From a virus: a stretch of 36,747 nucleotides of DNA. Made by a program: the position numbers and the translations under genes. The DNA lies in IMG/VR virus record IMGVR_UViG_3300045988_125015; one strand, given 5' to 3'. The notes beneath the pieces were generated by a model that saw only the letters and a list, made by a program, of their open reading frames with translations, made no database searches and was not told where the DNA came from. This document shows, piece after piece, positions 1 through 15,277 of this stretch; position 1 is the first letter of the stretch; the number at the start of each line of letters is the position of its first letter.

Positions 1-141
1 TATCCTGATGATGGTGCCGTGAGCACGCCTGGCAGCAATTACTAGGCTGCGAGCAGCACGCCAAAGCCGCCTTTGAGCGGCAGTATCCCGACGCTGTGAT
101 ACACTTGGAAAAGTTCGGGATAATTCACGCCCGGGCTACCA
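1..141. repeat. Terminal direct repeat copy 1 (exact duplicate of 36607..36747); circular-closure overlap
   Basis: Bases 1-141 (tatcctgatgatggtgccgtgagc...cccgggctacca) recur identically at 36607-36747. The unit length is 36606 bp. The repeat contains the 3' end of the recombinase gene. Confidence 0.95.
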
Positions 142-1574
142 CAACTGAGTTTCCCGAACTCTCCATTGGAGGGTTCGGGTTTTTTATTTTCGCAGGTAGG
201 ACGGCATAAAATGAACTGCACCAGCAGGCTCCCGTCCTCATTGACCGTCACTCGGTCGACGAAAGCTGCGACCATCCCGCGAGGGCCGTCCGAGTGGCGC
301 ATTTTGTAAAGCGCGAAAAGGATCATATCTCGGTCGATGAGCGGTGCCCCACGCTTAATCTCATCGAGCTCGGCCTTGAGCGCCGTGAGCTCGTCTTGCA
401 ATCCGTTGATTTTGACCGCCATTCGGTCCGTAGAGCCGAGCTTGCAGGCAAGGTCGATAGCGTTATCAATCTCACGCTCAACGTCCGTTATTCGGTGTCT
501 CAGGGCTTCACGCGCGGCAATCTCCTGTTCGGCGTCTTTGTCCTGACGCGCGAGTACCATATCGACTATACGCTCGTCCAGATCTGGATTCTCGTTTAGC
601 AGGCGCGCGCATGCGCCGATCACCTTGTCCTCAACCTCGTCTCGACGCATCGACACCTTCGTTTTGCGGCAGCGGTAGTAGTGATACTGCTTGCCGTTCT
701 CGCCATACCCGCAATCGCTCTCGAATTGGTTGCCGTTGGCATCATAAATCTTGCCTGACAGCAGATAATCAGCATTCATCTTGCCTCGCCTTTTCCGGCC
801 TCTGGATGCCATATGCGCATGAGCGCTGTCCCAAAGGTCGCGATTGATAATGGACGGCATGCCGTTTTCTTTTCTGAAATCGCCCCAGGTATAGGTGCCG
901 ATGTAGCGCTCGCAATTGAGCAGCCTGCTCACTGCTTCATTGCTAAATTGCCTGCCGGTGACAGTCTTGTAGCCAAGGCCGTTGAGCCTGCGCATGATCT
1001 CGGCTTTTGTCTCGCCGGCAGCGCACATGTCAAACGCCATGCGCACACCTGCCGCCTCGTGTTCATTGATGGCATAGTATCCATCGGCGCCACGGTCATA
1101 CCCAAAAATCGAGACGCCGTTGTGCTTACACTTGATGGCATTTCCCTCCATCCCGCGCTTTACGTTTTGCGCGAGGTTGGCGCTGTAGTATTCAGCCATG
1201 CCCTCAAGCACCGATTCGAGGATGATGCCGTCGGGACCGTCCGGCACCGATTCGGCCGCGGTTACGATCTCAACGCCACACTTACGCAGCTTCGCCTTAT
1301 AGACGGCAGAATCGTAGCGCGAGCGTGCGAAGCGGTCGGTCTTGTAGACGATTACCTTCGTCCAGCGCTGTGCCTGGGCATCGAGAACCATCTTTTGAAA
1401 GCCAGGGCGCCCGGCTGCATTGGTGCCAGATCGCGCCTCGTCCGTATAGGTCTTTACAATCTCAAAGCCATTGGATGTCGCGAATTGGGAGCAGACGCGC
1501 ACTTGGTCCTCAATTGATTCCTCGCGCTGCTTATCTGAACTAAATCTCGCGTAAATTACCGCTTTTTCTGCCAT
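42..1574 (-). CDS. Large serine recombinase (phage integrase type)
   Basis: 510-aa ORF. It has an N-terminal resolvase-type catalytic domain (VIYARFSSDKQ...YKTDRFARS), a recombinase domain, a Cys-rich zinc-ribbon segment (CGYGENGKQYHYYRC) and a long C-terminal coiled coil. It sits next to the repressor genes and the lysis cassette across the circular junction. Confidence 0.9.
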   Translation of the reverse strand: MAEKAVIYARFSSDKQREESIEDQVRVCSQFATSNGFEIVKTYTDEARSGTNAAGRPGFQKMVLDAQAQRWTKVIVYKTDRFARSRYDSAVYKAKLRKCGVEIVTAAESVPDGPDGIILESVLEGMAEYYSANLAQNVKRGMEGNAIKCKHNGVSIFGYDRGADGYYAINEHEAAGVRMAFDMCAAGETKAEIMRRLNGLGYKTVTGRQFSNEAVSRLLNCERYIGTYTWGDFRKENGMPSIINRDLWDSAHAHMASRGRKRRGKMNADYLLSGKIYDANGNQFESDCGYGENGKQYHYYRCRKTKVSMRRDEVEDKVIGACARLLNENPDLDERIVDMVLARQDKDAEQEIAAREALRHRITDVEREIDNAIDLACKLGSTDRMAVKINGLQDELTALKAELDEIKRGAPLIDRDMILFALYKMRHSDGPRGMVAAFVDRVTVNEDGSLLVQFILCRPTCENKKPEPSNGEFGKLSCGSPGVNYPELFQVYHSVGILPLKGGFGVLLAA

Positions 1575-1633: not shown

Positions 1634-1870
1634 TCAGTGGGCTTTTTTATTAACTTCACTGCTGTCGTACTCAATCTCAATCTGCCTGAATTCTGACGGA
1701 GTCATGCCAAGATTCTCGGCTATATGGACAGCCTTTTCCCATGTTGGGCTTTTCGTTCTGCCACAGACGAGCTTTGAGATGTACTGCACCGTTATCACCT
1801 CGTCGGCAAGGTCAACTGATTTCAGGCCGCGCTCAGCCATCACTCTTTTCAAAGTTTTCCCGAAAGACAT
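1634..1870 (-). CDS. XRE-family helix-turn-helix regulator (repressor paralog 1)
   Basis: 78 aa, MSFGKTLKRVMAERGLKSVDLA...YISKLVCGRTKSPTWEKAVHIAENLGMT, a typical HTH_3/XRE pattern. It is paralogous to the adjacent ORF. Confidence 0.8.
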   Translation of the reverse strand: MSFGKTLKRVMAERGLKSVDLADEVITVQYISKLVCGRTKSPTWEKAVHIAENLGMTPSEFRQIEIEYDSSEVNKKAH

Positions 1871-2094
1871 GATTTATTTGGTTCACCTTCTAATCGAGCT
1901 TCAAGCTCACTGAACTCATCAACGGTCATGCCGAGCGTTTTAATCATCGTCAGAGCCTTTTGCCAAGTTGGATCAGCTATTCGTCCTAAGAGAATCTTTG
2001 ATATATACGATGCGCTTACCTCGTCGCTAACGATATCAGCAGGCTTCAATCCCTTTATCTTAAGAGCTCTATCGAGAGCTTTTGCGAATGACAT
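1849..2094 (-). CDS. XRE-family helix-turn-helix regulator (repressor paralog 2, CI-like position)
   Basis: 81 aa, MSFAKALDRALKIKGLKPADI...YISKILLGRIADPTWQKALTMIKTLGMT. It is the first gene of the leftward operon, has an AAGGAGG RBS, and overlaps the next gene by 22 nt. Confidence 0.8.
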   Translation of the reverse strand: MSFAKALDRALKIKGLKPADIVSDEVSASYISKILLGRIADPTWQKALTMIKTLGMTVDEFSELEARLEGEPNKSCLSGKL

Positions 2095-2229
2095 CCGAGA
2101 CCTCCTTTGCCTAGATATATTTTAGCGCCGAACAAAAAAGTTGCCAATACGACAATTTTCTTATTGAAAAATGTCCAATACGACACTACACTATGTAGTG
2201 TCCAATACGACACTCTGGGAGGTGAGGAC
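2095..2229. promoter_or_regulatory. Divergent early promoter/operator region (genetic switch)
   Basis: Minus strand: TTGGCA (2147..2142), 17 nt, TAAAAT (2124..2119), then RBS AAGGAGG before ATG 2094. Plus strand: TTGAAA (2165..2170), 16 nt, TACACT (2187..2192), then RBS GGGAGG (2217..2222) before ATG 2230. There are three direct copies of CCAATACGACA (2144, 2176, 2202) overlapping the promoter elements, plus the inverted repeat ACACTAC/GTAGTGT at 2183..2201. Confidence 0.65.
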
Positions 2230-2433
2230 ATGGATAGGATTGCTGAAAAGATTGCTGTGTGGCTTCAAAAGACCGGCAATAGCAAGAAGTCGCTCGCAAA
2301 CATGCTCAACATTTCAACAACATCCCTCAACAACAAATTGCGTGGCAAAACGTCTTGGCGTTGGAGGGAGGTCTGCTCGGTCGCTGAAATTGTTGGATGT
2401 GAATTAAGCGACCTTGAGGACGAGGCGGCTTAG
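2230..2433 (+). CDS. Cro-like HTH regulator
   Basis: 67 aa from ATG 2230, which has a good RBS. The sequence MDRIAEKIAVWLQKTGNSKKSLANMLNISTTSLNNKLRGKTSWRWRE fits an HTH. It is divergent from the repressor genes. Confidence 0.75.
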   Translation: MDRIAEKIAVWLQKTGNSKKSLANMLNISTTSLNNKLRGKTSWRWREVCSVAEIVGCELSDLEDEAA

Positions 2434-2442
2434 CCCGCTACC

Positions 2443-2589
2443 TGATCGCCACATCGCGAGGCACGACCTTTTGGCGGTGGTCAGTACGTGTGCCATGTCC
2501 TGCCAATCGCAAGGTGACTCAGCGGCAAGCCGGTTCGCTCCTTTCAACCGGTAGTCAACCTGATGCCGTGCCTCACGATGTGGCGATCA
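2443..2589 (+). repeat. 23-bp inverted repeat pair closing a ~147-nt structured element (candidate ncRNA, put/nut-like element or inverton)
   Basis: tgatcgccacatcgcgaggcacg (2443..2465) is the reverse complement of cgtgcctcacgatgtggcgatca (2567..2589) with one mismatch. Nested helices lie at 2471-2477/2500-2506, 2512-2519/2553-2561 and 2530-2535/2546-2551. The region is non-coding and lies immediately 3' of cro. Confidence 0.85.
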
Positions 2590-2660
2590 ATCTCTAAAAG
2601 AAATGGCCTAGTAGTGCTGCAACACCACCAGGCCGCGGTCAAGGAAAGCTGGTAAGCAAA

Positions 2661-2858
2661 ATGACCAAAGTAATTGTATCATCCGCTGCTTTTTTTGCGC
2701 TTCTGCTCATGGTTGAGCCGATCTGCACGTTCATCGACAGCATGCCGCCTGTGCTCAACATGACTCTCGTCTTTGTCATGGTCGGTGCAATCATGCTCGC
2801 GTTCTATCGCATGATGCGCCGCCAGCTCGAGCTTTGCGAGGGACATTATGAGTGCTGA
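2661..2858 (+). CDS. Small hydrophobic (membrane) protein
   Basis: 65 aa with two hydrophobic stretches (VSSAAFFALLLMV, LVFVMVGAIMLAFY). Confidence 0.5.
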   Translation: MTKVIVSSAAFFALLLMVEPICTFIDSMPPVLNMTLVFVMVGAIMLAFYRMMRRQLELCEGHYEC

Positions 2859-2964
2859 TGAGTTCGCCGAGCGCTTCAAGCGCGAGCTGACCGAGTGGTT
2901 TGCCAAAGACGAGACCCGTAAGGAGTTCGAGCAATGGAAAGCAAGCGGGGAGGTGGCGAGATGA
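2848..2964 (+). CDS. Small hypothetical protein (38 aa)
   Basis: Translated by eye as MSADEFAERFKRELTEWFAKDETRKEFEQWKASGEVAR. It overlaps the upstream stop, and its own stop forms an ATGA overlap with the next start, which indicates translational coupling. Confidence 0.4.
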   Translation: MSADEFAERFKRELTEWFAKDETRKEFEQWKASGEVAR

Positions 2965-3434
2965 GTGAGGATTGCATCCCAGGCTCGTGCAAGCACGAGA
3001 CCTACACGATGCGCACTGTTGCAAATAAGTATCTCTGCAATGGCTGCACTCGTTTGGGTCACGAGATGAGAGTCACGTGCAAAGGCGATGGTTACTGCTT
3101 TTTCGCCGACAAGCGCAACGTTTTCAAGATCACCTCAATCGAGGTCATCGATGAGGGCATGGGCATCTATCGCGAAGCTGTTTTGGCTAACAAGCGAGGC
3201 GATGCCTACCTGATTAAGCATTTCGAGCGTAAGGATGCCATCGAAACGAGGTGGCGCTCTGCCTTTTGCCTCGTATACAGGTACGACTTGGCAAAAGGCC
3301 TTGCGGACACGACTGAGCAGGTGGAGAACGTCAAGAAAATGCCATTCTCCAATTCCGTCGATGAGGTCGTGAGACGGCTTGGAATTAACTACGACAGGCA
3401 CCTGTATAACTATTCGATTCGAGGCGAGCTCTGA
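2961..3434 (+). CDS. Hypothetical protein with Cys-rich N-terminus
   Basis: ATG 2961 is preceded by GGGGAGG. The product is 157 aa, starting MSEDCIPGSCKHETY...CNGCTRLGH. The ORF is in the early operon. Confidence 0.6.
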   Translation: MSEDCIPGSCKHETYTMRTVANKYLCNGCTRLGHEMRVTCKGDGYCFFADKRNVFKITSIEVIDEGMGIYREAVLANKRGDAYLIKHFERKDAIETRWRSAFCLVYRYDLAKGLADTTEQVENVKKMPFSNSVDEVVRRLGINYDRHLYNYSIRGEL

Positions 3435-3658
3435 TGGTTCTCACCGAGAAAGAGCGCAAGGAATTAAAGCTTCAGCTTCGCCCTGTCGTTAAAAGAATGC
3501 TTGATGAGCAGCCTGTTGCAACTGCGATTGCCAATGCGATGCGCAGGAATCCAGATCTGACTTGGTCTGAGCTCGCCAGCGTGTTTTGTGAAGTCATGGG
3601 CTGCTTGCCAATAAATTGCCCCCACTGCGGAAAGAGAATCACAAATGTCGACGAATGA
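3434..3658 (+). CDS. Small zinc-ribbon protein (array member A)
   Basis: 74 aa ending NCPHCGKRITNVDE. It has a TGATG overlap with the upstream gene. Confidence 0.65.
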   Translation: MVLTEKERKELKLQLRPVVKRMLDEQPVATAIANAMRRNPDLTWSELASVFCEVMGCLPINCPHCGKRITNVDE

Positions 3659-3932
3659 TAAGCGAGCGATTGCCAATGAGTTGCGCCGTGTTGCGAATGA
3701 TTCATTGAATGGTGAGAGCTTGCAGCGCGCGCTTGCCAGAATTGCCGATGCCGATGATTCGAGTTGGCGTGGCGTAATGCACCGCCTTGCCGACCTGATT
3801 GAGCCGCCACTCACTTGCAACATCATGGGCGACGACAACTCTTTCATTTGCGAGAAATGCGGTGCCAAGTGGTCTTACGACCTTGGGTTTACGTACTGTC
3901 CGGAATGTGGAGCGGAGGTTACCAATGGCTAG
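3645..3932 (+). CDS. Zinc-ribbon protein (array member B, full three-motif type)
   Basis: 95 aa carrying DKRAIANELRR, RLADLIEPPLTC and CEKCG...YCPECGAEVTNG. Confidence 0.7.
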   Translation: MSTNDKRAIANELRRVANDSLNGESLQRALARIADADDSSWRGVMHRLADLIEPPLTCNIMGDDNSFICEKCGAKWSYDLGFTYCPECGAEVTNG

Positions 3933-4146
3933 TGCTAGAGAACAGCACCTTCCGTATTGCTCGACCGCTGATGTTGTCGTGCTCGATGGTGACGGCAGCA
4001 GGTGGGTGAGAGAGATGACGTGCCATCTCGTCGAGGACGAGGAAGGGCGCACAGCCTGCTCTGAGTGTGGATGCACCGCACTGTACATGCTCGATGCAAC
4101 GTACTGTCCCGACTGCGGATGCAAATTGCAAGGTGGTAGCGAATGA
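3925..4146 (+). CDS. Small zinc-ribbon protein (array member C)
   Basis: ATG 3925 follows GGAGG. The product is 73 aa with CSECG...YCPDCGCKL. The ATG lies inside the Asn-Gly-stop of the upstream gene. Confidence 0.6.
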   Translation: MASAREQHLPYCSTADVVVLDGDGSRWVREMTCHLVEDEEGRTACSECGCTALYMLDATYCPDCGCKLQGGSE

Positions 4147-4412
4147 ACTGCTTTTTCTGCGACGGCCCTCGCGTTGCACCTGTGCACAACATTCCTTTTC
4201 GCAACTCTCCGATTTACTCAATTGGGACTATGACGCTGACGCGCCGCTACGATGGCGAGCTGACTGTCGAGGTCAAAATTGATGACGATGTCGAGTTCGA
4301 TTTTGACAGCGAGTCGGTCGATGGCAGCCTTGCTGCCCATGTAACAGCATCTGGCAGCATCGACCATGTCAAGTACTGCCCGTTTTGCGGAAAGGAGATT
4401 GCCAATGGCTAA
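4143..4412 (+). CDS. Small zinc-ribbon protein (array member D)
   Basis: 89 aa with CFFCDG at the N-terminus and YCPFCGKEIANG at the C-terminus. It has an ATGA overlap with the upstream gene. Confidence 0.6.
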   Translation: MNCFFCDGPRVAPVHNIPFRNSPIYSIGTMTLTRRYDGELTVEVKIDDDVEFDFDSESVDGSLAAHVTASGSIDHVKYCPFCGKEIANG

Positions 4413-4938
4413 CACAGGCAATGGAAGCGAACAGACGTGCGCGACATGCGTCAGTTATGACGGCAGTGCCTGCAAGATTGACGGATTCATTATGGAGACC
4501 AGCGACTTCTCGTGCGAGATGTACAAGGAGCGACCACACTCATCTGACAGTGAGAAGGAGAGCGTTCAACAAGCGATTACCGACAAAGAGCGCCGCGAGA
4601 TCGCCGCGAGTTTGCGCCAAATTCGCAAGAAGATGGACGGCGAGAAGCCTCCACAAATCCCGACTCTTGCCGCAGCTGTCTATCTGGTAAGGATTGCCAA
4701 GGCTGTCAAATGCGGCGAGAGCGGTGCGCTTTTCTATCGCCTGGCCGATTTGATTGACCGACCAACCTGTACCTTTTATGGCACATCCGAGCGGATCAGC
4801 TACGCCTGCTCGAATTGCGGCCAGACCTTCACGCGCAGGCCGCTCATGGCGCACGATTTTGGCAATGTCACTAAGGTTGAGATCCCATTCCGATTCTGTC
4901 CCTACTGCGGTGCAGAGGTGATGACAGATGATGAATGA
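4405..4938 (+). CDS. Zinc-ribbon protein (array member E) fused to an N-terminal Cys4 CxxC..C..CExYKE domain
   Basis: 177 aa. Motifs are TCATC...C...SCEMYKERP, then ERREIAASLRQ, RLADLIDRPTC and CSNCG...FCPYCGAEV. Confidence 0.7.
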   Translation: MANTGNGSEQTCATCVSYDGSACKIDGFIMETSDFSCEMYKERPHSSDSEKESVQQAITDKERREIAASLRQIRKKMDGEKPPQIPTLAAAVYLVRIAKAVKCGESGALFYRLADLIDRPTCTFYGTSERISYACSNCGQTFTRRPLMAHDFGNVTKVEIPFRFCPYCGAEVMTDDE

Positions 4939-5356
4939 TGTGCGCCGCAGGATTGCAGGCAAGTTGCGCGAAAAGTTTGACCTGATTGAAAGTTCGCTTT
5001 TGCATCCTGACGGATCTGAGCCCAACTGGTCTGTCGAAGAACTGTTTGAAGTGCTGGACATCGATTATCCCGAGTGTCTCAGCCCGTGGGAATGCCCTTA
5101 TGACTACATTGCCGACCTCATAGATGTACCTACCTGCAAAGACCTTGTCGAGCACGTACCTGACCCATTCATCCCGACTCAGCGCATGAGGGATGGCTAT
5201 TTCGAGTGCTCGGAATGCGGATGGAATGGACACCTCATGGAGTACATCGGCTTTGGGGACATGGGGGCATTTGAGCCGAAGTATTGCCCGGAATGTGGAA
5301 GGGAGATTTTGAGGAGGGCTAATGGCGCCGAGCGTCGGGCGAGTGACAACCAATGA
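4928..5356 (+). CDS. Zinc-ribbon protein (array member F)
   Basis: 142 aa with VRRRIAGKLRE, YIADLIDVPTC and CSECG...YCPECGREI. Confidence 0.7.
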   Translation: MMNDVRRRIAGKLREKFDLIESSLLHPDGSEPNWSVEELFEVLDIDYPECLSPWECPYDYIADLIDVPTCKDLVEHVPDPFIPTQRMRDGYFECSECGWNGHLMEYIGFGDMGAFEPKYCPECGREILRRANGAERRASDNQ

Positions 5357-5702
5357 GCTTCGCCGAAATGTCGCGGCCAGAATGCGCGAGCTGCTTGATG
5401 AGAACAAATACATCTCGCTTGATGCACTGGTTGTTAGATCAATTGGTGATGACCTGCCAGACGGCATGGGGTATGAGCGGATGCTTGCAGATCTAATCGA
5501 CTCGCCAAAAGCAAGCAGGAAGAGGTTCACGGAAGACGAGCTCCGAGAGCGTCGAAATCGTCAGCATTACGAATCGCTCGTGCGTTGCGGTCACGCATCT
5601 ATTTGCCCAGAGTGTGGCGGCTATACGACTTCCGACAACGGTTATCACATCGGATGCGCCAAGAAAGCTGGCATTCCGATTAAAAGGAGGCACAATGCCT
5701 GA
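5322..5702 (+). CDS. Zinc-ribbon protein (array member G, divergent)
   Basis: 126 aa with TNELRRNVAARMRE, MLADLIDSP and a single ICPECGG knuckle. GAGGAGG RBS. Confidence 0.65.
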   Translation: MAPSVGRVTTNELRRNVAARMRELLDENKYISLDALVVRSIGDDLPDGMGYERMLADLIDSPKASRKRFTEDELRERRNRQHYESLVRCGHASICPECGGYTTSDNGYHIGCAKKAGIPIKRRHNA

Positions 5703-5919
5703 CCCATTCAATCATCCAATCATCTATTTACGCAGGCTCAGGACTCCTACTTGTAAGACGTGCGCCAATTATTCCGTCCGGTTTCTCTAGCCAGCGTGCG
5801 CGTGCGCCAAGTACCTTGAGCACTATAACAGGCTGAATTGCGCGAGCGTGGAATACGCCATTCTCGACGAAGTCCGTGGCACTCGGTTCTGCGAGTACGA
5901 GGAGCGCAAAGATGCTTAG
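5695..5919 (+). pseudogene. Cys4 (CxxC..C..CExYEE) small ORF interrupted by an in-frame TAG at 5788..5790
   Basis: ATG 5695 follows AAAAGGAGG. The frame reads MPDPFNHPIIYLRRLRTPTCKTCANYSVRFL, then TAG, then PACACAKYLEHYNRLNCASVEYAILDEVRGTRFCEYEERKDA, then TAG. Both halves are in one frame and together resemble three other Cys4 ORFs in this genome. Confidence 0.5.
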
Positions 5920-5943
5920 TCACGAGCAGGGCGGTGGTCATCG

Positions 5944-6222
5944 ATGAAGCGGATTAAGTTCGCAAGGCCCGTCGATTGCCCGACGTGCGGCGCGACTCCT
6001 TGCCATCAGAAATGGAAGCCGCGCAAGACGGTGGACGCAAACGAGATGGTCGCGATAGGAGACGCTAACCCCGTCGATGCCGTTCATTGCCGTAGGTGCG
6101 ACCTTGTCTTTCGTGTGGCGCACTTCGAGCACGACGACACATATATCACGAGCTGGGATGAGATTGAGACGATTCCGCGCTACTGCCCGTGGTGCGGCGC
6201 GGAGGTGGTGGACGATGAGTAA
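5944..6222 (+). CDS. Double zinc-ribbon protein (array member H)
   Basis: 92 aa with CPTCG, CRRC and YCPWCGAEVVDDE. Confidence 0.7.
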   Translation: MKRIKFARPVDCPTCGATPCHQKWKPRKTVDANEMVAIGDANPVDAVHCRRCDLVFRVAHFEHDDTYITSWDEIETIPRYCPWCGAEVVDDE

Positions 6223-6466
6223 GCGCAAGGTCGAGCTCTATCTCGTCAACGACTGCGGGGGCGAGTGGGAGGACGCCTGGAATGAGCCGGTCATCGCATT
6301 CGACAATCAGGACGATGCCAAGAAGTGCGCATGCGCTCGTGAGCTGCGCCAAAGTCTCTGTAACTCAGGCTTTGGCTACAGAGACTACTCCGGCTCTTTT
6401 ATCACAGAAATCGATGCCGTCATCGACGATTCAATCTTTGCGCCTAAGGATGTGCGAGATGAATGA
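6215..6466 (+). CDS. Hypothetical acidic protein
   Basis: ATG 6215 overlaps the upstream stop. The product is 83 aa, starting MSKRKVELYLVNDCGGEWEDAWNEPV. Confidence 0.55.
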   Translation: MSKRKVELYLVNDCGGEWEDAWNEPVIAFDNQDDAKKCACARELRQSLCNSGFGYRDYSGSFITEIDAVIDDSIFAPKDVRDE

Positions 6467-6716
6467 CGGGATGGCAATCGAACTGACCGGTGCGAATGGC
6501 GAGAAATGGGAATGCCTTGGCGACATTGCGCCGGCTCAAAGAGCCGATCTGGCTGGATGGCGCGACTGTCAGAAAGATTCCCCAAGCGAAAGCCCGTTCG
6601 CACATGAATCCATCTGGGCTGACAGCGACAGGCCGTGGTATCAGGTGCCTGGACATTCACTGAGCGGCCTGCCGCTTTTATCAGGCAAAACAATCGAAGG
6701 AATTGATTATGAATAA
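6459..6716 (+). CDS. Hypothetical protein
   Basis: ATG 6459 (or 6450) overlaps the upstream stop. The product is about 85 aa, starting MNDGMAIELTGANGEKWECLG. Confidence 0.5.
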   Translation: MNDGMAIELTGANGEKWECLGDIAPAQRADLAGWRDCQKDSPSESPFAHESIWADSDRPWYQVPGHSLSGLPLLSGKTIEGIDYE

Positions 6717-6987
6717 CCAACTGACTCCATGTTACGTGAGCGAGATGCCGGGCGAGCGTGCGCGAGCGCTGCTCATTGACTTTGCGGTTGAGGCCTGGAC
6801 CCATCCGGCCTCGCCTTTTATCAACGGCTTTCCGGCAGGACAAGAGTCTCACCCGCGAGCGATCGTGATGTTTGAGACCGGAGACGTGCGATGCGTTCAC
6901 GTAAATGCCATTCAAGTCATCGGCGCGGAAGGGATTTTCAGTGAGTACGCATTTCCCAAAAACGACGGCTCGACGAGTCCCATTTAA
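6709..6987 (+). CDS. Hypothetical protein
   Basis: ATG 6709 follows GAAGG and forms an ATGAATAA overlap with the upstream stop. The product is 92 aa. Confidence 0.5.
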   Translation: MNNQLTPCYVSEMPGERARALLIDFAVEAWTHPASPFINGFPAGQESHPRAIVMFETGDVRCVHVNAIQVIGAEGIFSEYAFPKNDGSTSPI

Positions 6988-7139
6988 GAGCGAAAGGCCA
7001 GTCGAGACCGATTTCGGCATCGTCAATCTTTTCCTTCACCTAACAGGCAACGACACGATGCCAACGGCTCAAGAGTCCGATTGGCCCAATCACAAGCATC
7101 CATCACCGCCGATGCGCGAGTGGTGGGGATAGGAGATAG

Positions 7140-7433
7140 ATGAAATCTTTAATAGTTGACAGCTTCACATTCGCGTTCGCGACGATTGTCGTTTTGGTCG
7201 TGTTCGCGCTTTATCTAGGCGTGCCGGCAGGCATGCTCTCGATGATTTGCTCGATCGTGAGTGCAGCGGCGGCAGTGACGGCGATGGTTTTTCTTATCGT
7301 GCTCAAAAAGACCCTTGAGCCGATCTACGCGATTGCCGAGACGAGCAGGTACCGAATTATCAAGATGCGCGGAGAGATCGATACGCTCAAGCGCCGAGTC
7401 AATGCATTGGAGGACAAGGTATATGGAGCGTAA
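7140..7433 (+). CDS. Membrane protein with C-terminal coiled coil
   Basis: 97 aa with two hydrophobic helices (FAFATIVVLVVFALYLGV, SIVSAAAAVTAMVFLIVL) followed by EIDTLKRRVNALEDK. AGGAG RBS. Confidence 0.6.
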   Translation: MKSLIVDSFTFAFATIVVLVVFALYLGVPAGMLSMICSIVSAAAAVTAMVFLIVLKKTLEPIYAIAETSRYRIIKMRGEIDTLKRRVNALEDKVYGA

Positions 7434-7812
7434 AAAGCGCATCATGTCTTTGCCTGACTATGGACCGACCAACGGCTCGCCCGATGTGATCCTTTTCATG
7501 GGCGAAAGCTACGAGAAAGCCGGCGCCAGCAAGGACGTACTGACCGATTCAAACACTAAGATAGCGGCTTATTCGCCAACTCGTGTGACAAATGCCCTCG
7601 CCGTCTCGCATTGCGGTTACAGGGAGGCGCACGAAGCCCCTGACATCATCCAGTACGAGGGCGCGAGCTACGTAAAGGCCGACCTCGATGCGCTCGAAAA
7701 GCTCGTGGGCGACCTGTCGGCGCTCGGGGATATCCCAGAGCCCGTAGCGACCGGCGCGAGCTGCGCCCTGATTGCCGAGAGGATCAAGCGAGCGATTGGG
7801 GCATGGGAATGA
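7423..7812 (+). CDS. Hypothetical protein with an internal duplicated motif
   Basis: About 129 aa. The motif PD[VI]I.[FY].G.SY.KA occurs twice (SPDVILFMGESYEKAG and APDIIQYEGASYVKAD). Confidence 0.5.
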   Translation: MERKKRIMSLPDYGPTNGSPDVILFMGESYEKAGASKDVLTDSNTKIAAYSPTRVTNALAVSHCGYREAHEAPDIIQYEGASYVKADLDALEKLVGDLSALGDIPEPVATGASCALIAERIKRAIGAWE

Positions 7813-8048
7813 CGGATGACGAGATTAAGCAGGCGCTGGACGATGCCGAGCTCTCAATTGAAATCGATTGCCAGCGCGACCCTGACTTTATCAAAGTCAG
7901 CAGTGGAAAGGTCTATAGACCTGAGCGCCCGGCGCACAAGATGCTTGAGCCATGTGGAGGCTACCAGATGTTCTTGTGCAGCGAGTGCAACTATGAGGTG
8001 TTTGGCACCTCGGTCTACTGCTTTCACTGCGGATCGCGATTCGTATGA
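7803..8048 (+). CDS. Small zinc-ribbon protein (outlying array member I)
   Basis: 81 aa ending LCSECNYEVFGTSVYCFHCGSRFV. Confidence 0.6.
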   Translation: MGMTDDEIKQALDDAELSIEIDCQRDPDFIKVSSGKVYRPERPAHKMLEPCGGYQMFLCSECNYEVFGTSVYCFHCGSRFV

Positions 8049-8563
8049 GGCCGCTCGAGTTCTTCGTGCCGTCAAACCGGCTCAGTCCCAAAGGCGAGCG
8101 TACTCACGTTGACGGCCGGAATGAGTACATAAAGGCCGTCAACACGTCCCGCCTGGTCGGTGCGCGGCGTGAGCGTGAGAACGTGACCCTCGTTGCCGAC
8201 TATGCGGCGCTCGCCATGCGGCAGGCGGCTTGGAGACCGCCTGAGACCCATTGTCTCGTCTACGTCACCTTCATCGAGCGTGACCGGCGCCGTGACATTC
8301 CCAATGTCTACGGCGGGCTCAAATGGGTTCTGGACGGCCTGAGCCGACCGCGCGGCAGCAAGAGCGTGGGAGCCGGCGCCATCGTCGACGATTCGCAAAA
8401 GTGGCTGACCGTTATACCCATGGTCGCCATCGACAGGCAAAACCCCGGTGTCCATATCAAGATCGTGCCGGTCGACAACCCGGCAGAAATCGAGACCGTT
8501 CAGGTCATGGGAACAAACGTTCCCATTCTAGCAAACATAAACAAAGGATTTATCACATTATGA
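8045..8563 (+). CDS. RusA-like Holliday-junction resolvase (tentative)
   Basis: 172 aa. ERDRRRDIPNVYGGLKWVLDGL...IVDDSQKW resembles the RusA core (RRRRDLDN...DAL...DD), but the second Asp of the DxD pair is Pro here. Confidence 0.45.
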   Translation: MRPLEFFVPSNRLSPKGERTHVDGRNEYIKAVNTSRLVGARRERENVTLVADYAALAMRQAAWRPPETHCLVYVTFIERDRRRDIPNVYGGLKWVLDGLSRPRGSKSVGAGAIVDDSQKWLTVIPMVAIDRQNPGVHIKIVPVDNPAEIETVQVMGTNVPILANINKGFITL

Positions 8564-8907
8564 CTCTCACGACTGACTACATCCTGGGACTGATTCTCAC
8601 GGTAGGTGCCGATGCCTGCCTGTGCATGCCGTCAATCAAGGCCGAGGACGGCAAGCCGGTAAAGTATCCCGAGATCGCCTACGCCGTCGCCTCGACCTGC
8701 GATGCCCTGTGCAAGGAGATTGCCGGCGTCATGATGGGTGACGCGCCGCGCGATTCGCGCGAGCTCGTCTGCGGCATTGTCGAAAATACCTTCAAGGCCT
8801 CAATTGAGAATATGAATCGCGATCAGGCGCTCGACATTGAGACCATCCCGACAATCATCCGCGGCCTGCGCGTCGGCAAAATCGAGGTGAGCGATGATGA
8901 CTGCTAG
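8560..8907 (+). CDS. Hypothetical protein (paralog pair with 8894..9166)
   Basis: 115 aa. It shares a [AE]STCD[AT]L.K box with the next ORF and overlaps its neighbours. Confidence 0.5.
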   Translation: MTLTTDYILGLILTVGADACLCMPSIKAEDGKPVKYPEIAYAVASTCDALCKEIAGVMMGDAPRDSRELVCGIVENTFKASIENMNRDQALDIETIPTIIRGLRVGKIEVSDDDC

Positions 8908-9166
8908 CAGCGAGCTCTTTATTGCGAATTGCAATACGATTGCCGTCACCGCAAGGGATCTAGCGGCAGATTATCGACCGCCTTTGAAAGACGCTGCCGC
9001 CGCCATTAAATGCGGCATGTGCTACAGCCTTATTGCCGAGACGTGCGACACACTTGCCAAACTCAGCAAAAAGAATATCGACATCGCCAACTGTGAATTT
9101 GACCCGTTGGTGTGCGTGGCAAGCATTCTTATCCACGGCACGACTGGCCCCAAGACCGAGGGCTGA
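8894..9166 (+). CDS. Hypothetical protein (paralog pair with 8560..8907)
   Basis: 90 aa containing ...CYSLIAETCDTLAKLSKK... Confidence 0.5.
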   Translation: MMTASSELFIANCNTIAVTARDLAADYRPPLKDAAAAIKCGMCYSLIAETCDTLAKLSKKNIDIANCEFDPLVCVASILIHGTTGPKTEG

Positions 9167-9168
9167 CC

Positions 9169-10344
9169 ATGGCGGCAACGGTCCCAGTCAAGCAGGATTC
9201 AAGGGGAATCTGGTACAGCAGAATATATCTTGGCAAGGATTCCAAGGGCAAGAAGATTCAGGCTTACCGCTCTTTTCCAGAGGCAACTAGTGAGGCCGAT
9301 GCTCGAGTCGCCGCGGCAATCTGGGCATCAGATCTCACGGCAGACGGCCGCGTGCGCTCAACGGTGCTCACCGACATGCTCGCCGACTATATCGAGATGC
9401 GCGAGATCAACGGCGCGAGCCCCAACTCGGTCAAGCAGTGGCGCCAATTCCTGCGCTGCTACATCAGCCGGTTCCTGCGCGGCAAGCGCGCCGACGAGCT
9501 CACGGCGCTCGACTTCACGCGATTCAACGGAGTGCTGCTACGCCACGGCTCGCGCGACGGCAAGCAGCTGAGCCCCAACACGGTCAACGCGGTCTACCAA
9601 TTCCTACGAGGTGCCTATAGGTACTTCGTGAGCGTAGGCCTCGTGGAGACCAACCCGCTGCTCGCCGCCGTCAAGCCATACCGCGACCAGGACGAGGCGA
9701 TCGCGCTTGAGGAGGACGATGTTGCAATCCTCAACGCCTACCTCGACCCGATCGTGAGCTTTGATGTGGAGGTGGGCGACATCGAGCGCCGGAATGCCTT
9801 TGCAGCCTGGCTCGCGCTCCACACCGGCGCGCGCTGCGGCGAGGTGTGCGCCGTGCGACCTAAGGACGTGTACCCAAAGCGCGGATATATCCACATCGGC
9901 GGCACGGTCGTGGAGCCCGGCAACGAGCAGCCATACCGCAAGGAGAAGCCAAAGAGCTCCACGTCCAGGCGCAACATCTCGCTCGTACCGGAGGAGCTGG
10001 AGGTCATCGCGAGATTCATGGCGTGGCACGAGACAAAGAAGGGGAGTGCCCGGGACATGGGCATCGCGAGCGTCGACGGCACGTGGGCGAGACCTTCGAC
10101 CTTGAGCAGCTGGTTCAAGCGGCTCGTCGAAAAGCTCGACCTCGACCGCCAAGCGACATTTCACACGCTTCGCCACACGCACGCCAGTTGGTGCCTGGCA
10201 CACGGTATCGACGTGGTGACGCTCAGCGAGCGCCTTGGACACTCATCGCCGGCAATCACGATCCGAATCTACGGTCACATGCTGCAGGGCCGCGACATGG
10301 CGGCAGCTGAAACTTTCTACAAGGCGATTCAAGGAGGTGTTTAG
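9169..10344 (+). CDS. Tyrosine recombinase / lambda-type phage integrase with arm-binding N-terminus
   Basis: 391 aa from ATG 9169. The N-terminus GIWYSRIYLGKDSKGKKIQAYRSF looks like an arm-type DNA-binding domain. Catalytic signature: HTGARCGEV (Arg), HTLRHTHAS (HxxR), LGHSS (His), IYGHM (Tyr). Confidence 0.85.
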   Translation: MAATVPVKQDSRGIWYSRIYLGKDSKGKKIQAYRSFPEATSEADARVAAAIWASDLTADGRVRSTVLTDMLADYIEMREINGASPNSVKQWRQFLRCYISRFLRGKRADELTALDFTRFNGVLLRHGSRDGKQLSPNTVNAVYQFLRGAYRYFVSVGLVETNPLLAAVKPYRDQDEAIALEEDDVAILNAYLDPIVSFDVEVGDIERRNAFAAWLALHTGARCGEVCAVRPKDVYPKRGYIHIGGTVVEPGNEQPYRKEKPKSSTSRRNISLVPEELEVIARFMAWHETKKGSARDMGIASVDGTWARPSTLSSWFKRLVEKLDLDRQATFHTLRHTHASWCLAHGIDVVTLSERLGHSSPAITIRIYGHMLQGRDMAAAETFYKAIQGGV

Positions 10345-10539
10345 TTGAAGCCCACACAGCTCACCAAGAAAGAGAGCGACCTAATAGTTATGTACCGAAA
10401 GTTATCTGCCATCCATCAGGACGATGTGCGGACTTATGCGGCACTGAGAGTGCAGCTCGAGCAGTCCGAGAAAAGGATCAGGGACGGTCTCACGGCATGG
10501 GACAAGGCTGTTGAAAACTCCCAAAACAGCCAGAAATAG
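10345..10539 (+). CDS. Small hypothetical protein (TTG start)
   Basis: 64-aa ORF directly abutting the integrase stop. Helical and charged, with no recognisable family. Confidence 0.4.
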   Translation: MKPTQLTKKESDLIVMYRKLSAIHQDDVRTYAALRVQLEQSEKRIRDGLTAWDKAVENSQNSQK

Positions 10540-10684
10540 CGGTTGCAATGGAGTTGCAATGACCTAGTTTTCAACAATTCAACAATCTGGAAAAACCACA
10601 GTTAGACATACGAAAAACACGTAAAGCAACAGCACACAAGCAAATAAGAACGAGTTATTTGCTTACACCCAGAAAGAGGACGAA
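10540..10684. promoter_or_regulatory. AT-richer intergenic region with short phased repeats (candidate attP arm sites, promoter or iterons)
   Basis: GTTGCAATG occurs at 10542 and 10553 (11-bp phasing). TCAACAAT occurs in tandem at 10571 and 10579. GTTTTCAAC at 10567 is the inverse of GTTGAAAAC at 10510. There is a hairpin caaataa/ttatttg at 10641..10661. Confidence 0.4.
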
Positions 10685-11071
10685 ATGGACGAATTCGACG
10701 AGCTGTCGGATGCCGAAATCGAGGCGCTTACCGAGTTTGACGAGATGGGCAAAGGCTTTCCTCCCAACCCGCTCCCGCAGCTGACCCCAGAGGAGCGCTT
10801 CGCCGCATCGCAGAAAGCAAGCGAGACCCGCAAGGCGAGGATGCGACTCAAGCGTGAGATGAAGGATGGAGAGCTTTCCGTTGCCGCGGCAATCGAGCTG
10901 CCCGTGATGCAGCGCATGAAGGTTTTCGAGTTCATCCGCGCCATTCCCGGCATCGGTATCAGCCGAGCCAGGGAGTTTATGCTCGCCAACTCCATCGCCG
11001 ACAACCGCCGAGTCGGTGGCTTGAGTAAGCATCGCCGCGCACAGGTTATCGCCCTGGGAGGTGAGCGCTAA
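10685..11071 (+). CDS. Actinobacterial-type integration host factor (mIHF-like) with acidic N-terminal extension
   Basis: 128 aa. LPQLTPEERFAASQKASETRKARMRLKREMKDGELS...QRMKVFEFIRAIPGIGISRAREFMLANSIADNRRVGGLSKHRRAQV matches from memory the mycobacterial mIHF pattern (LPQLTDEQRAAALEKAAAARRARAELK...KMKVSALLEALP..GKVKAQEIM..IA.TRRLRGLGDRQRKAL). Confidence 0.75.
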   Translation: MDEFDELSDAEIEALTEFDEMGKGFPPNPLPQLTPEERFAASQKASETRKARMRLKREMKDGELSVAAAIELPVMQRMKVFEFIRAIPGIGISRAREFMLANSIADNRRVGGLSKHRRAQVIALGGER

Positions 11072-11319
11072 TGAGACCCGAGTGCCGACGTAACTTCGAG
11101 CGCCTTGCCAAGTTGCTGTGCATCCTGGCAGCGCTACTCGGCTCGATCGTCATGCTCATCGCCATCACGGTCATCACCGCGGTTGTCTGCTATTTCGCGC
11201 ATCTGGCATTCCTTTGGTACGTGCCGGTCATCATCACGGCATTCGCCCTGGGCTTCGCCGGACTCGCCCTTTTGCTCGTGAACGTCAAATCGCGCGACGA
11301 TGACGAGGGCTACGAGTGA
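11071..11319 (+). CDS. Small membrane protein
   Basis: 82 aa with two long hydrophobic helices. It has a TAATG overlap with the upstream gene. Confidence 0.55.
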   Translation: MRPECRRNFERLAKLLCILAALLGSIVMLIAITVITAVVCYFAHLAFLWYVPVIITAFALGFAGLALLLVNVKSRDDDEGYE

Positions 11320-11813
11320 TGAAGCGCATCATGAGCGCGCGCGAGCTGAGCAGGTGCCTCGTCGAGCGATTCAGGCGCGATGGCGTTTTCAGTGGACCTC
11401 GTTGGCTTGACAAGGGCGAGCTGATTCTGCCGATGCGTCCAGAGTTTCGGCGGCTTTTCGAAAACGCCCTGCAACTGCGACAGAGCTGCGACAGAGCTGC
11501 GACATCGTCGCGCGATTTTGCCGATGCTGTCGCGAGCATGTATGAGGATGCGATTTTATACGGCTCGCCAATTGACTCAGCTGCCGACATGATTGTCGGC
11601 CTGATTCCAAAACAACATGGTCCTCGCGCGACCTTTGTGCCCGTTGACTTTGCCACATTCGCCAACCCGCTCAACCGCAGTGATGACGATTGGCACGAGC
11701 TGTCTGAAATCGCCGTGAATGCCGAGCGCAAGGCCAACCGAGCGCGAGAGAGGGCACTCAAGCGATCGCGCCGAAATGCCAAGAACCCCAAGAAGAAAGG
11801 CAAATGCCGATGA
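11319..11813 (+). CDS. Hypothetical protein with basic C-terminus
   Basis: About 164 aa with C-terminal RKANRARERALKRSRRNAKNPKKKGK. It contains an 11-bp tandem repeat at 11474..11503. Confidence 0.5.
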   Translation: MKRIMSARELSRCLVERFRRDGVFSGPRWLDKGELILPMRPEFRRLFENALQLRQSCDRAATSSRDFADAVASMYEDAILYGSPIDSAADMIVGLIPKQHGPRATFVPVDFATFANPLNRSDDDWHELSEIAVNAERKANRARERALKRSRRNAKNPKKKGKCR

Positions 11814-12004
11814 GTGATGAGGAAACCACAGAGACCGAGGCGCCAAAGACGTGCGCGGAGTGCCGTTTTGCAGCGCCGTATACATTCACGCCGCCAGCCA
11901 ATCCCGACAGTCCCGGCAACCTCTACTGTTCTGTCGACAAGGCCGTAATGAGCGTCAACCCGTCCCATACCTGCGACAAATACAAGGAGCCCGACCGTGC
12001 CTAG
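11804..12004 (+). CDS. Small Cys4 protein (CxxC..C..CDKYKE family)
   Basis: 66 aa with TCAECRF...YCSVD...HTCDKYKEPD. Confidence 0.55.
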   Translation: MPMSDEETTETEAPKTCAECRFAAPYTFTPPANPDSPGNLYCSVDKAVMSVNPSHTCDKYKEPDRA

Positions 12005-12428
12005 ATTCATTACCAAGACCGAGCGCGACACTCTCAAGTGCGCACTTGGTGGCATCAATTCCTACCTCAACTTCGTCGACGAGGCCGAGGACCGCTCTGA
12101 TGGCAACGTGTCCGTACCTGAGCGTGCCATGCACGCCTGGGTTACGACCATCAACGGCGTCATCGAGAGCATTGACCACAGGAACAAGGAGTGGCTTGAG
12201 AGCATTCCCGAGCACTACCGCGGCGACGGCTTCATTACCTGCGACATGGCACTTGCAGCCATGCTTGCCAGGGCGACCCGTATGGCGATGCCTCCGATGG
12301 TCATTTTCTGGTGGGCCAATGCGTTCAAATACCTCTGGCGCTGGGCATACAAGGGCGATTGCAAGGGCGACCTCAACAAGGCCATCGATTGCATCGAGCA
12401 TGTCCGCGACTGGCAGAAAACCCGGTAA
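11997..12428 (+). CDS. DUF3310-like protein (tentative)
   Basis: 143 aa. The C-terminal ANAFKYLWRWAYKGDCKGDLNKAIDCIEHV resembles the DUF3310 signature (KYl.R...K....DL.KA..y). GTG start. Confidence 0.4.
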   Translation: MPRFITKTERDTLKCALGGINSYLNFVDEAEDRSDGNVSVPERAMHAWVTTINGVIESIDHRNKEWLESIPEHYRGDGFITCDMALAAMLARATRMAMPPMVIFWWANAFKYLWRWAYKGDCKGDLNKAIDCIEHVRDWQKTR

Positions 12429-12619
12429 TGCTCCCGCCTGCGCCCTGCTGCGAGACTTGCCGTTGGTGGCGCGAGAGATACGACAGGTCTTGGTGCAAGC
12501 ATCCCGATCCGTATCTCCGCGCCGTCCGCGACACCACCATCTGCGAGGACTACCAAGAGCGCCGAGGCGAGGACTGGTGCTCGCTCGTCTACGGCAACCT
12601 CGCCATCAAGCACCACTAA
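12428..12619 (+). CDS. Small Cys4 protein (CxxC..C..CEDYQE family)
   Basis: 63 aa from ATG 12428: MLPPAPCCETCRWW...WCKH...TICEDYQERR. Confidence 0.5.
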   Translation: MLPPAPCCETCRWWRERYDRSWCKHPDPYLRAVRDTTICEDYQERRGEDWCSLVYGNLAIKHH

Positions 12620-12649
12620 CCATCAACTCCACGAGATAGGACAACATTT

Positions 12650-12868
12650 ATGTCAATGGACATCAACGCGCCCCTTTTCCGCCAACTCGAGCGTCTTGAG
12701 AACATCGACCCGTCCGACACCGACGCGCTCAAGGCCGAGATTGAGCGCGCCAAGGCGGTCAAGGACATCGCCGAGACCATCATCGACTCCGGACACCTGA
12801 CCGCCGACGTCATCAAGCTCAAGCATCAACTCGGTGCCACCGCGACCATCCCCAAGGGACTGCTCTAA
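12650..12868 (+). CDS. Small acidic hypothetical protein
   Basis: 72 aa, helical. It has a TAATG overlap with the next gene. Confidence 0.5.
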   Translation: MSMDINAPLFRQLERLENIDPSDTDALKAEIERAKAVKDIAETIIDSGHLTADVIKLKHQLGATATIPKGLL

Positions 12869-13872: not shown

Positions 13873-13883
13873 GAGTTTTCCCG

Positions 13884-14312: not shown

Positions 14313-14543
14313 TCTACCTGGGGAAACTTTCAACAAAGCATCGCTTAAGCGATGCTTTAGCGATGCTTGTAATAAAATAAAAGAAAAGAAAATAAAAGAA
14401 ACGCCGACGCACGGCTCGTTATTAACGAGACGTGCCGGGCGTCGGGAGTCAACCTCACAAGGAAGTCCTCTCTTTGGTTCTTTCTCTGTTGAAAACTTTT
14501 TTGGGCTGTTGAAAACTCGCGACATTTGCAAAGGAGCCGGGCT
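14313..14543. promoter_or_regulatory. Highly structured intergenic region (candidate origin or late regulatory region)
   Basis: A perfect 24-bp palindrome aaagcatcgctt/aagcgatgcttt lies at 14335..14358, with a third agcgatgctt copy at 14359..14368. An A-tract block runs about 14369..14401. A nested hairpin lies at about 14402..14447. GTTGAAAAC occurs twice (14488, 14508). Confidence 0.45.
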
Positions 14544-15261: not shown

Positions 15262-15277
15262 GTCTTAGAGGTGCGCC

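Follow-up and report, generated by a model that had tools for sequence, protein, structure and literature searches.

We analysed a window of 36,747 nucleotides (nt) of viral DNA (the whole of IMG/VR virus record IMGVR_UViG_3300045988_125015) and focused on a block of small genes in its early rightward operon, most of which encode predicted zinc-ribbon proteins. An earlier reading made without database searches (hereafter, the sequence-only reading) had described this block as a tandem array of eight translationally coupled, paralogous zinc-ribbon genes, with a ninth as an outlier further downstream. The nine open reading frames (ORFs) concerned, named Z1 to Z9 here, all exist and all start with ATG. 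They are listed below together with one further gene of the array, psi-F18, and are described with three modules from which the products appear to be built: H, three helices (RRxIAxxLR…LADLIDxPTC) with near-invariant ERRxIAxxLR and ADLIDRPTC; R, a CPxCG-type ribbon with a very variable loop length; and N, a Cys module of the form CxxC…C…C[ED]xY.

3434..3658, plus strand: Z1, 74 amino acids (aa), a single CPHCG knuckle and a Cx4C; the most conserved member.
3645..3932, plus strand: Z2, 95 aa, a minimal H+R protein, with the three-helix module running to LADLIEPPLTC and then a CEKCG…CPECGAEV ribbon.
3925..4146, plus strand: Z3, 73 aa, a stand-alone ribbon, CSECG…CPDCG.
4143..4412, plus strand: Z4, 89 aa, with CFFC at the N-terminus and the knuckle CPFCGKEI at the C-terminus; it evolves fast.
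4405..4938, plus strand: Z5, 177 aa, an N module (residues ~10-42, KTCATC…C…CEMYKER), then an H module, then a ribbon.
4928..5356, plus strand: Z6, 142 aa, an H+R protein that has a long insert and continues past the knuckle in a tail.
5322..5702, plus strand: Z7, 126 aa, basic (isoelectric point, pI, 9.0), an H module with a degenerate single-knuckle C-terminus (CGHASICPECGG).
5695..5919, plus strand: psi-F18, a pseudogene of a stand-alone N module, overlapping the Z7 stop by 8 nt.
5944..6222, plus strand: Z8, 92 aa, three CxxC motifs (CPTCG, CRRC and CPWCGAEV).
7803..8048, plus strand: Z9, 81 aa, the outlier, with a CSEC…CFHCGSRF ribbon; it lies where the operon is conserved and shares 4 nt with the downstream RusA-like gene.

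The anatomy first described for these proteins largely held up on inspection. Seven of them (Z1, Z2, Z3, Z4, Z5, Z8 and Z9) end in the C-terminal knuckle, and the other two continue past it with tails of 14 aa (Z6) and 27 aa (Z7). An upstream CxxC at 15-60 residues from the knuckle is found in most members, the exceptions being Z1 (Cx4C instead), Z4 (76 residues) and Z7 (none), and pairs of knuckles are present in Z2, Z3, Z5, Z6, Z8 and Z9. The basic N-terminal helix and the LADLI[DE] box do recur in Z2, Z5, Z6 and Z7, with TC following the box in three of the four. The motif C[PF]xCG occurs 10 times in the six frames of the 36.7-kb window, always on the plus strand between 3617 and 8019 and always inside the nine ORFs; CxxCG occurs 15 times in the plus frames of 3434..8048, compared with a mean of 0.31 and a maximum of 3 in 500 shuffles. 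By these counts the temperate phage does carry, in its early rightward operon, a real and non-random series of small Cys4 zinc-ribbon genes, as had been proposed. Most of the products are acidic, with a pI of 4.4-5.5 in seven of the nine, and Z7 and Z1 are basic or neutral.

Neighbouring genes of the array overlap by 14, 8, 4, 8, 11 and 35 nt, within the reported range of 4-35 nt. Translational coupling is a fair description of the array, but it is not peculiar to the zinc-ribbon genes, because overlaps of 1-35 nt continue throughout the whole operon (2934..8563). The apparent gap of 241 nt between Z7 and Z8 (5703..5943) is not intergenic, and holds a full-length homologue of a 75-aa gene of a sister phage (the comparison set used throughout consists of 17 sister Collinsella phages, whose loci carry L numbers). 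This homologue, psi-F18, is interrupted by one in-frame TAG (5788-5790; CAA in L006) and otherwise keeps the frame. It is close to the copy in L006 (L006:3863-4090; mean column identity of 80% in a three-sequence DNA alignment with L006 and L009), and intact F18 genes of 73-79 aa are found in L006, L008, L009, L010, L022-L024, L026 and L027. We regard psi-F18 as a recent pseudogene. Recoding of its TAG to Gln was considered and judged unlikely, as Z2 and psi-F18 themselves stop at TAG.

The relatedness of the nine proteins was evaluated using a family profile built without the window sequences, the results of which agree with an all-against-all BLASTP of the nine. Z5 (E-value 9e-70), Z6 (2e-35) and Z2 (9e-17) matched over the whole core, and Z7 over its helical half only (2e-6). 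The homology of Z8 (9e-6) is confined to its last ~17 residues (hhalign against the family gave a probability of 96% over 17 columns), the match of Z1 (2e-4) is weak and partial, Z4 (0.045) and Z3 (0.55) did not reach significance, and Z9 had no match. The PHROGs cluster phrog_21525 was matched end to end by Z5 (1.8e-16), Z2 (7.3e-11) and Z6 (2.6e-7), with no significant match from Z1, Z3, Z4, Z7 or Z9. Paralogy, which had been claimed for all nine, is therefore kept for Z2, Z5, Z6 and Z7; it does not extend to Z3, Z4 and Z9, which share only the knuckle, and Z1 and Z8 are partial profile matches.

Columns A49, L51, I52, T57, C58, C69, C72, C85, P86 and C88 are invariant in 63 aligned sequences of the H+R family. 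The invariant residues are complete in Z2, Z5 and Z6, and Z7 has ADLID without TC and the first knuckle. The architectures in the window are H+R (Z2 and Z6), H with a degenerate R (Z7), N+H+R (Z5) and N alone (psi-F18), and the sister phages add H-only (71 aa), H+gA (149-180 aa; gA is a non-ribbon gene at the end of the block) and Lar+H (156 aa) forms, Lar (PF14354, TIGR03655) being the restriction alleviation protein of the Rac prophage. Z3, Z4, Z8 and Z9 appear to be other ribbons, and Z1 is probably another. In total, at least ten small genes of the block are predicted to encode Cys4 zinc-binding proteins built from the modules H, R and N. In the AlphaFold2 (AF2) model of Z2 (mean predicted local distance difference test score, pLDDT, of 74.7) helices span residues 3-18, 26-33 and 41-52 and are followed by beta strands; beta strands are predicted around the knuckles in this model and in that of Z5 (mean pLDDT 63.7).

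The size of the family was estimated with the H+R profile. At 50% identity it retrieved 1,613 clusters (E ≤ 1e-3) from among 1.84 billion representatives, 316 of them with E ≤ 1e-10; at 90% identity, the clusters with E ≤ 1e-5 numbered at least 5,249. Typical members have 105-125 aa, and among the matches listed they come from prophages, often as tandem genes, of Coriobacteriia and gut Clostridia; of the members listed, a single one has a source name, the JGI name 'transcription elongation factor Elf1'. Z5 has 97 close homologues, and Z7 belongs to a 66-member cluster at 90% identity, mostly on contigs of ~30-37 kb (range 7-109 kb). The only library entry for the H+R family is phrog_21525 (PHROGs v4), an automatic cluster annotated as 'unknown function'. 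The earlier statement that the array fits no described family is accurate insofar as no characterised family claims its members, and inaccurate insofar as the core has already been clustered, in what proves to be a very large family.

For the nine proteins, the extra sister cassettes and distant members, Pfam and NCBIfam returned only sub-threshold matches to generic zinc ribbons, the best being Zn_ribbon_RRN7 with 21.2 bits (cut-off 27.1), with Zn_Ribbon_1, DZR and Zn_ribbon_3 also below their cut-offs, and PHROGs returned only families of unknown function, phrog_21525 included. Foldseek searches with the AF2 models of Z5 and Z2 against PDB, and of Z5 also against BFVD, gave no match with E ≤ 1e-3; the ribbon alone matched generic zinc fingers. 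A sequence-profile search of PDB likewise reached nothing but generic zinc fingers, with E-values of 0.005-0.02 for 8q5b ('Small CPxCG-related zinc finger protein'), 9fhl and 4qiw. Profile searches of Pfam, NCBIfam and PDB accordingly placed no member significantly in a well-characterised family. No paper on the H+R motif or the PHROG identifier was found by text search, which turned up misspellings of LAGLIDADG instead, and the polyvalent-protein paper makes no mention of these domains. Proteins of this phage are deposited in GenBank as 'MAG TPA_asm: Caudoviricetes sp.' (DAL44330-DAL44339), with the names 'restriction alleviation protein' for Z4 (DAL44333.1), 'ISL3 zinc-finger of transposase…' for Z7 (DAL44336.1) and 'E3 ubiquitin-protein ligase' for Z9 (DAL44272.1). 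These three names have no above-threshold match behind them and look like artefacts of zinc-knuckle similarity, a warning for GenBank product names on such proteins in general.

The block was then compared across the sister phages. The flanking genes g166, Z1, gC, g97, g129, Z9 and the RusA-like gene are 70-98% identical, and the number of array genes varies between the related phages, with 3-9 genes having a CPxCG knuckle between Z1 and gC and a minimum of three ribbon genes (L007). The cassette order is constant: Z1 Z2 Z3 Z4 (F15) Z5 Z6 (Z7 or F16) (F17) F18 Z8 Lar H91 H-only gA gB gC. The block is thus a collinear pan-array of ~18 cassettes, of which each phage has kept 5-15. The phages differ by presence and absence, by fusion and fission and by chimeras, and no new duplicates were seen. 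Fusions include Lar+H of 156 aa in two different samples (L002:5117-5587 and L025:11780-12250), H+gA(+gB) of 149-180 aa (e.g., L001:5795-6337) and Z4+F15 (L010:3584-4072). Fused neighbours are expected when a single indel removes an overlapping stop/start junction, and the fusions of neighbouring cassettes hint that the products act together.

A rapid local expansion, as the sequence-only reading had it, is not supported by this comparison. The paralogues are old, at most 32% identical to one another, and Z2 is closer (44%) to a gene on a contig of a Coriobacteriaceae bacterium metagenome-assembled genome (L012) than to Z5 or Z6. The H-only genes of two unrelated prophages are mutual closest relatives, and tandem sets of H-family genes are also found on an Acutalibacteraceae contig and a Coriobacteriaceae contig. 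Recent tandem duplication was rejected in view of the low identity of the paralogues and the collinear blocks of the sister phages.

Selection on the individual genes was profiled as the ratio of nonsynonymous to synonymous substitution rates (dN/dS) against the sister phages. The ratios are low for Z1 (0.02-0.22), Z2 (0.11-0.26), Z3 (0.10-0.22), Z6 (0.08-0.20) and Z8 (0.16-0.17), and higher for Z5 (0.22-0.55), Z4 (0.48-0.59) and Z9 (0.48-0.86). Values of 0.02-0.26 in five of the eight members tested indicate that the ORFs encode real proteins, and the possibility that most members are not translated, which had been named as one way in which the proposal could fail, is opposed by the same values. 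Z1 is present in 17 of the 17 phages and its exact sequence was found on 137 contigs (in 250 index blocks), so this prophage group is widespread. Z4 is only 46-59% identical (aa) to its sister copies, Z7 has an orthologue in one of 16 sister loci (L027), and Z9 is present in every sister locus reaching that position (8/10), at ~71% identity.

Inspection of the junctions revealed that the end of the knuckle is used in two ways. The codons for CG-A-E-V are GGAGCGGAGGT in Z2, GGTGCAGAGGT in Z5 and GGCGCGGAGGT in Z8, and those for K/R-E-I are AAGGAGAT in Z4 and AGGGAGAT in Z6. A Shine-Dalgarno sequence, GAGG or AGGAG, lies within the tail codons 4-9 nt ahead of the next ATG, and this ATG is itself embedded in tail codons, as AAT-GGC (NG) or GAT-GAx (D-D/E). 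The ATG of Z3 is contained in the TNG* tail of Z2, that of Z5 in the IANG* tail of Z4, and that of Z7 in the RANG carried by the Z6 tail. Given that the tail codons provide the Shine-Dalgarno sequence and the start of the next gene, part of the tail conservation would be imposed by the neighbouring gene, and with such dual coding each cassette carries the translation-initiation region of its neighbour. The three junction strings quoted in the sequence-only reading as a footprint of cassette duplication are all present, though the shared tail reflects at least in part a dual-coding constraint and not a footprint alone.

The junction DNA repeats are 64-86% identical, and the Z2/Z3 and Z4/Z5 junctions form a 39-nt direct repeat of 77% identity (3893-3931 and 4373-4411). 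Rearrangements in the relatives fall at the same short junction repeats. In L009, Z3 has been lost by knuckle-to-knuckle recombination, leaving the Z2 body with the Z3 tail; in L010, the first 11 residues of Z2 are joined to Z3; and two chimeras were detected, Z2/Z5 (P0078) and Z5/Z8 (P0138). The short junction repeats thus appear to serve as recombination sites at which cassettes are deleted, fused or chimerised. Taken together, we hold this description of the block, i.e., its anatomy, its modules, its dual-coding junctions and its turnover, to be very probably correct.

The block lies in a complete temperate phage genome of ~36.6 kb. An exact 141-nt direct repeat at both window ends (1..141 and 36607..36747) shows that the genome was circularly assembled or is terminally redundant, with a unique length of 36,606 bp. 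The other features that bear on the block or on the phage are the following.

42..1574, minus strand: a large serine integrase, at the genome end.
1634..2094, minus strand: two repressor-like helix-turn-helix (HTH) genes (ORF calls).
2119..2192: divergent promoter-like sites, between the repressor-like HTH genes (minus strand) and the cro-like gene (plus strand).
Plus strand, divergent from the repressor-like HTH genes: the cro-like gene.
2934..3434, plus strand: g166, a conserved, Cys-rich protein of 166 aa directly upstream of Z1, its stop overlapping the Z1 start (TGATG).
6215..6987, plus strand: gA, gB and gC (83, 85 and 92 aa), which lack a ribbon and form the end of the variable block.
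7140..7433: g97, a 97-aa protein in the middle of the early operon, after a gap of 152 nt.
8045..8563, plus strand: a RusA-like Holliday-junction resolvase (phrog_34, 5.8e-12), at the end of the nin-like small-gene block.
9112..10344, plus strand: a tyrosine recombinase (phrog_1, 3.6e-56), in the early/late transition region.
11804..12004, plus strand: a further stand-alone N-module gene, 66 aa (KTCAECRF…CSVDK…CDKYKE), with an orthologue of 64-66 aa called in sister loci.
12428..12619, plus strand: a further stand-alone N-module gene, 63 aa (CCETCRWW…WCKH…ICEDYQER), with a 63-aa orthologue called in sister loci.
12868..13872 and 15278..15649: genes for two HNH-type endonucleases, both upstream of the terminase genes (small and large).

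The early rightward operon probably starts at 2119..2192, where the promoter-like sites are consensus matches only and do not exceed shuffle expectation, and a terminator scan detected no terminator-like site on the plus strand between there and 8600. The g166 gene (dN/dS 0.12-0.23) is present in the sister phages examined, L004 beginning inside it, and has no match in PHROG, Pfam or NCBIfam; gA, gB and gC have no Pfam match. The g97 protein has a hydrophobic, membrane-like N-terminal half and a coiled-coil-like C-terminal tail, and is highly conserved (dN/dS 0.07-0.16) without a family match. The products of 11804..12004 and 12428..12619 share CxxC…C…C[ED]xY with the N-terminus of Z5 and with F18 and form a second paralogous Cys4 family; that of 12428..12619 also matches the N part of the family profile weakly. 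The genome has two recombinases, the serine integrase at its end and the tyrosine recombinase midway through the early/late transition region, and the latter is kept in all sister phages. HNH endonuclease, large terminase subunit and portal genes are among its landmarks, and HNH genes upstream of terminase genes are a common arrangement of cos phages. In library scans of 2100..16200, from the immunity region to the terminase, no replication initiator, helicase, primase or polymerase was recognised, and the first three were not recognised elsewhere in the genome either.

Searches of INPHARED phages with the early region, the structural region and the Z2 protein gave no DNA or protein match. The sister prophages L022-L027 (locus coordinates ~5500-8400) are integrated beside a 119-aa gene of the arsenate-reductase/Spx family, and the host proteins flanking them are identical to Collinsella proteins (e.g., WP_349107612.1 of Collinsella sp. 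CLA-AA-H302), indicating that the host is Collinsella (Coriobacteriia, human gut). Collinsella is a common genus of the human gut, and to our knowledge the phage-host biology of Coriobacteriia is almost unstudied.

We favour, with a probability of roughly 40%, the reading that this is a modular Cys4 cassette block which is shuffled at dual-coding junctions and whose products act as protein-binding modulators. The functional part of this reading is put forward tentatively. The products would be expressed early, be individually dispensable and mostly be small acidic proteins, and their targets, which they would bind and modulate, would be proteins of the host or of its defences and not DNA. The conserved H module may be a common scaffold or docking domain, with the variable ribbons and inserts giving target specificity, and the proteins may act in the same pathway as a Lar-type restriction-alleviation protein. 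As judged from the gene sequences, the block is most likely an early, dispensable accessory set of acidic protein-binding modulators, and a counter-defence role of the products is a plausible prediction.

Several observations support this reading. The block is positioned just downstream of the immunity switch, with no plus-strand terminator-like site between them, individual members are dispensable across the sister phages, and the acidic pI of seven of the nine proteins favours protein binding over DNA binding. A true Lar gene (PF14354, cut-off 28.6 bits) is encoded inside the same block in sister phages (L001:5333-5548, 51.2 bits; L002:5117-5587, 45.2 bits) and is absent from this window, and in two unrelated phages a Lar gene is one gene away from an H+R gene. 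Regarding the features of anti-defence islands, high turnover was seen here, and the only neighbour of a known type is the Lar-family gene of the sister phages. Anti-defence genes have been looked for in regions where near-identical phages show a high turnover of short genes that lack annotation, and a 52-aa zinc-ribbon phage protein, 'Enki', inhibits AbiH and a retron (bioRxiv 10.1101/2024.06.14.598830).

Other observations weigh against it. Neither sequence nor fold searches (Pfam, PHROGs, NCBIfam, PDB and BFVD) matched any member to a characterised protein, and confidence in the AF2 models is moderate (pLDDT 64 and 75). The link to Lar is one of association: small-gene regions of phages often carry Lar-family genes, and neither Z8 nor Z4 itself passes as Lar. 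A stable housekeeping role would account for old paralogues under purifying selection as well as an arms race would, and Z1, being nearly invariant and present in every phage of the set, may be a core regulator instead of an accessory gene. Early expression is deduced from gene position alone. That CGAEV is kept in thousands of members of the family could be due to what the protein does and not to the downstream Shine-Dalgarno sequence. Finally, the lack of recognisable replication genes makes a nin-like role in DNA metabolism or regulation a serious rival.

A bolder version of the favoured reading, which we regard as distinctly unlikely, is that the H module (LADLIDxPTC) is the hallmark of modular counter-defence proteins of phages, an undescribed family of very large size (at least 5,000 sequence clusters, mainly from prophages of gut Coriobacteriia and Clostridia). 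Their H module would dock on a conserved host target or on a co-encoded Lar-type protein, swappable ribbons, N modules or gA domains would confer specificity, and the dual-coding knuckle junction would be a built-in recombination site with which phages reshuffle their set.

If the genes instead encode factors of DNA metabolism or regulation of the kind found in nin regions, the ribbons would bind phage or host nucleic acid, for example as accessories of replication, recombination or transcription. We consider this unlikely, though a serious rival. The block sits between the immunity switch and RusA as lambda nin does, with the same style of overlapping ORFs, and nucleic-acid binding is frequent among zinc ribbons. 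By sequence, the nearest matches in PDB are RNA polymerase subunit P/Rpo12, HVO_2753-type proteins and Zn-ribbon RNA-binding proteins, all of them weak (E 0.005-0.2). That no initiator, helicase or primase could be recognised in the genome also fits, as do Z1, with its fixed presence and dN/dS down to 0.02, and the basic or neutral charge of Z7 and Z1. Nucleic-acid binding is, however, not what the acidic pI of the other seven would suggest, and most members are dispensable, L007 making do with its three ribbon genes. No HTH, other known DNA-binding domain or fold match was found with Pfam or Foldseek.

It is improbable, in our judgement, that there is no gene family at all and that the knuckle arose convergently, as a by-product of dual coding and of gene conversion between junctions, spread over unrelated small ORFs of which some are non-functional. 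The GAGG or AGGAG in the tail codons 4-9 nt before the next ATG, the ATG within NG or DDE codons and the similarity of the junction repeats would all be expected from such a process, Z3, Z4, Z8 and Z9 align to the family over the knuckle only, and one member is a pseudogene. On the other hand, Z2, Z5, Z6 and Z7 are homologous over ~60 residues outside the knuckle, and a Shine-Dalgarno constraint cannot explain a Cys pair. The dN/dS is below 1 for all members with orthologues (mostly ≤0.26), and thousands of homologues from unrelated contexts keep the consensus CPxCGAEVV. Because of this evidence, the by-product process was folded into the favoured reading as a partial cause and not as a replacement.

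Binding to the secondary channel of RNA polymerase in the manner of TraR/DksA, by an acidic-tipped helix and a C4 zinc finger that would reprogramme host transcription early in infection, is highly improbable. Small-gene regions of phages do contain TraR-like genes, and the gross layout recalls TraR, in that a short protein opens with a helix (M-x-S-D-x-E at its start), has a DxxD box and carries a C4 zinc motif at the C-terminus, but there was no DksA/TraR zinc-finger Pfam match even at E ≤ 1, no TraR or DksA chain among the top 50 Foldseek PDB matches of either model, and the predicted fold is a compact three-helix bundle with no long coiled coil, so the idea was rejected as lacking any sequence or fold support.

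The system is a compact natural experiment, as at least 17 near-isogenic phages differ mainly in which of the ~18 small cassettes they have kept. If the H+R family, which the favoured reading takes to be made up of protein-binding modulators, acts in counter-defence, a function would be given to thousands of proteins without functional annotation, with the first example from Coriobacteriia. If it does not, the block still shows dual-coding junctions that couple translation and drive the shuffling of cassettes.

Among known systems, the closest in layout is the nin region of lambda (ren, ninA-ninI), which lies between the replication genes and Q and includes recombination genes, with rusA in relatives. 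Like lambda nin, the block belongs to the early rightward operon and lies shortly before a RusA-type resolvase gene, and has about ten small ORFs that overlap at stop and start, are dispensable singly and vary among related phages. Unlike lambda nin, there are no recognisable replication genes upstream of it, its genes bear no sequence relation to any nin gene, and they mostly encode Cys4 proteins composed of three modules. With overlaps of 1-35 nt, RusA at 8045..8563 and 5-15 genes in the 17 sister phages, it belongs with the nin-like accessory blocks, which is an architectural class and not a statement of homology.

The members resemble Lar in being small CPFCG-type zinc-ribbon phage proteins. 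No gene of the window reaches the Pfam cut-off of 28.6 bits, however (Z8, 17.0; Z4, 10.9), and with TIGR03655 Z8 scored 19.7 bits against a cut-off of 39.6. Z8 was rejected as a Lar homologue, as hhalign against the Lar alignment gave a probability of 48% over 16 columns covering only the knuckle. The ribbon half shares the CPxCG knuckle signature with small CPxCG-type zinc-finger proteins (HVO_2753-like, Rpo12), though the matches cover ~35-45 residues of the ribbon and are sub-significant, and the H and N modules have no counterpart there.

As in high-turnover anti-defence regions, short unannotated genes vary between syntenic close relatives, whereas the paralogues of this block are old and under purifying selection and not obviously diversifying. 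The cluster phrog_21525 comes without function, domain dissection or literature. Given these comparisons, we conclude that the block is a further example of a known feature, the variable accessory block of small genes in the early operon of temperate phages, and not a categorical novelty.

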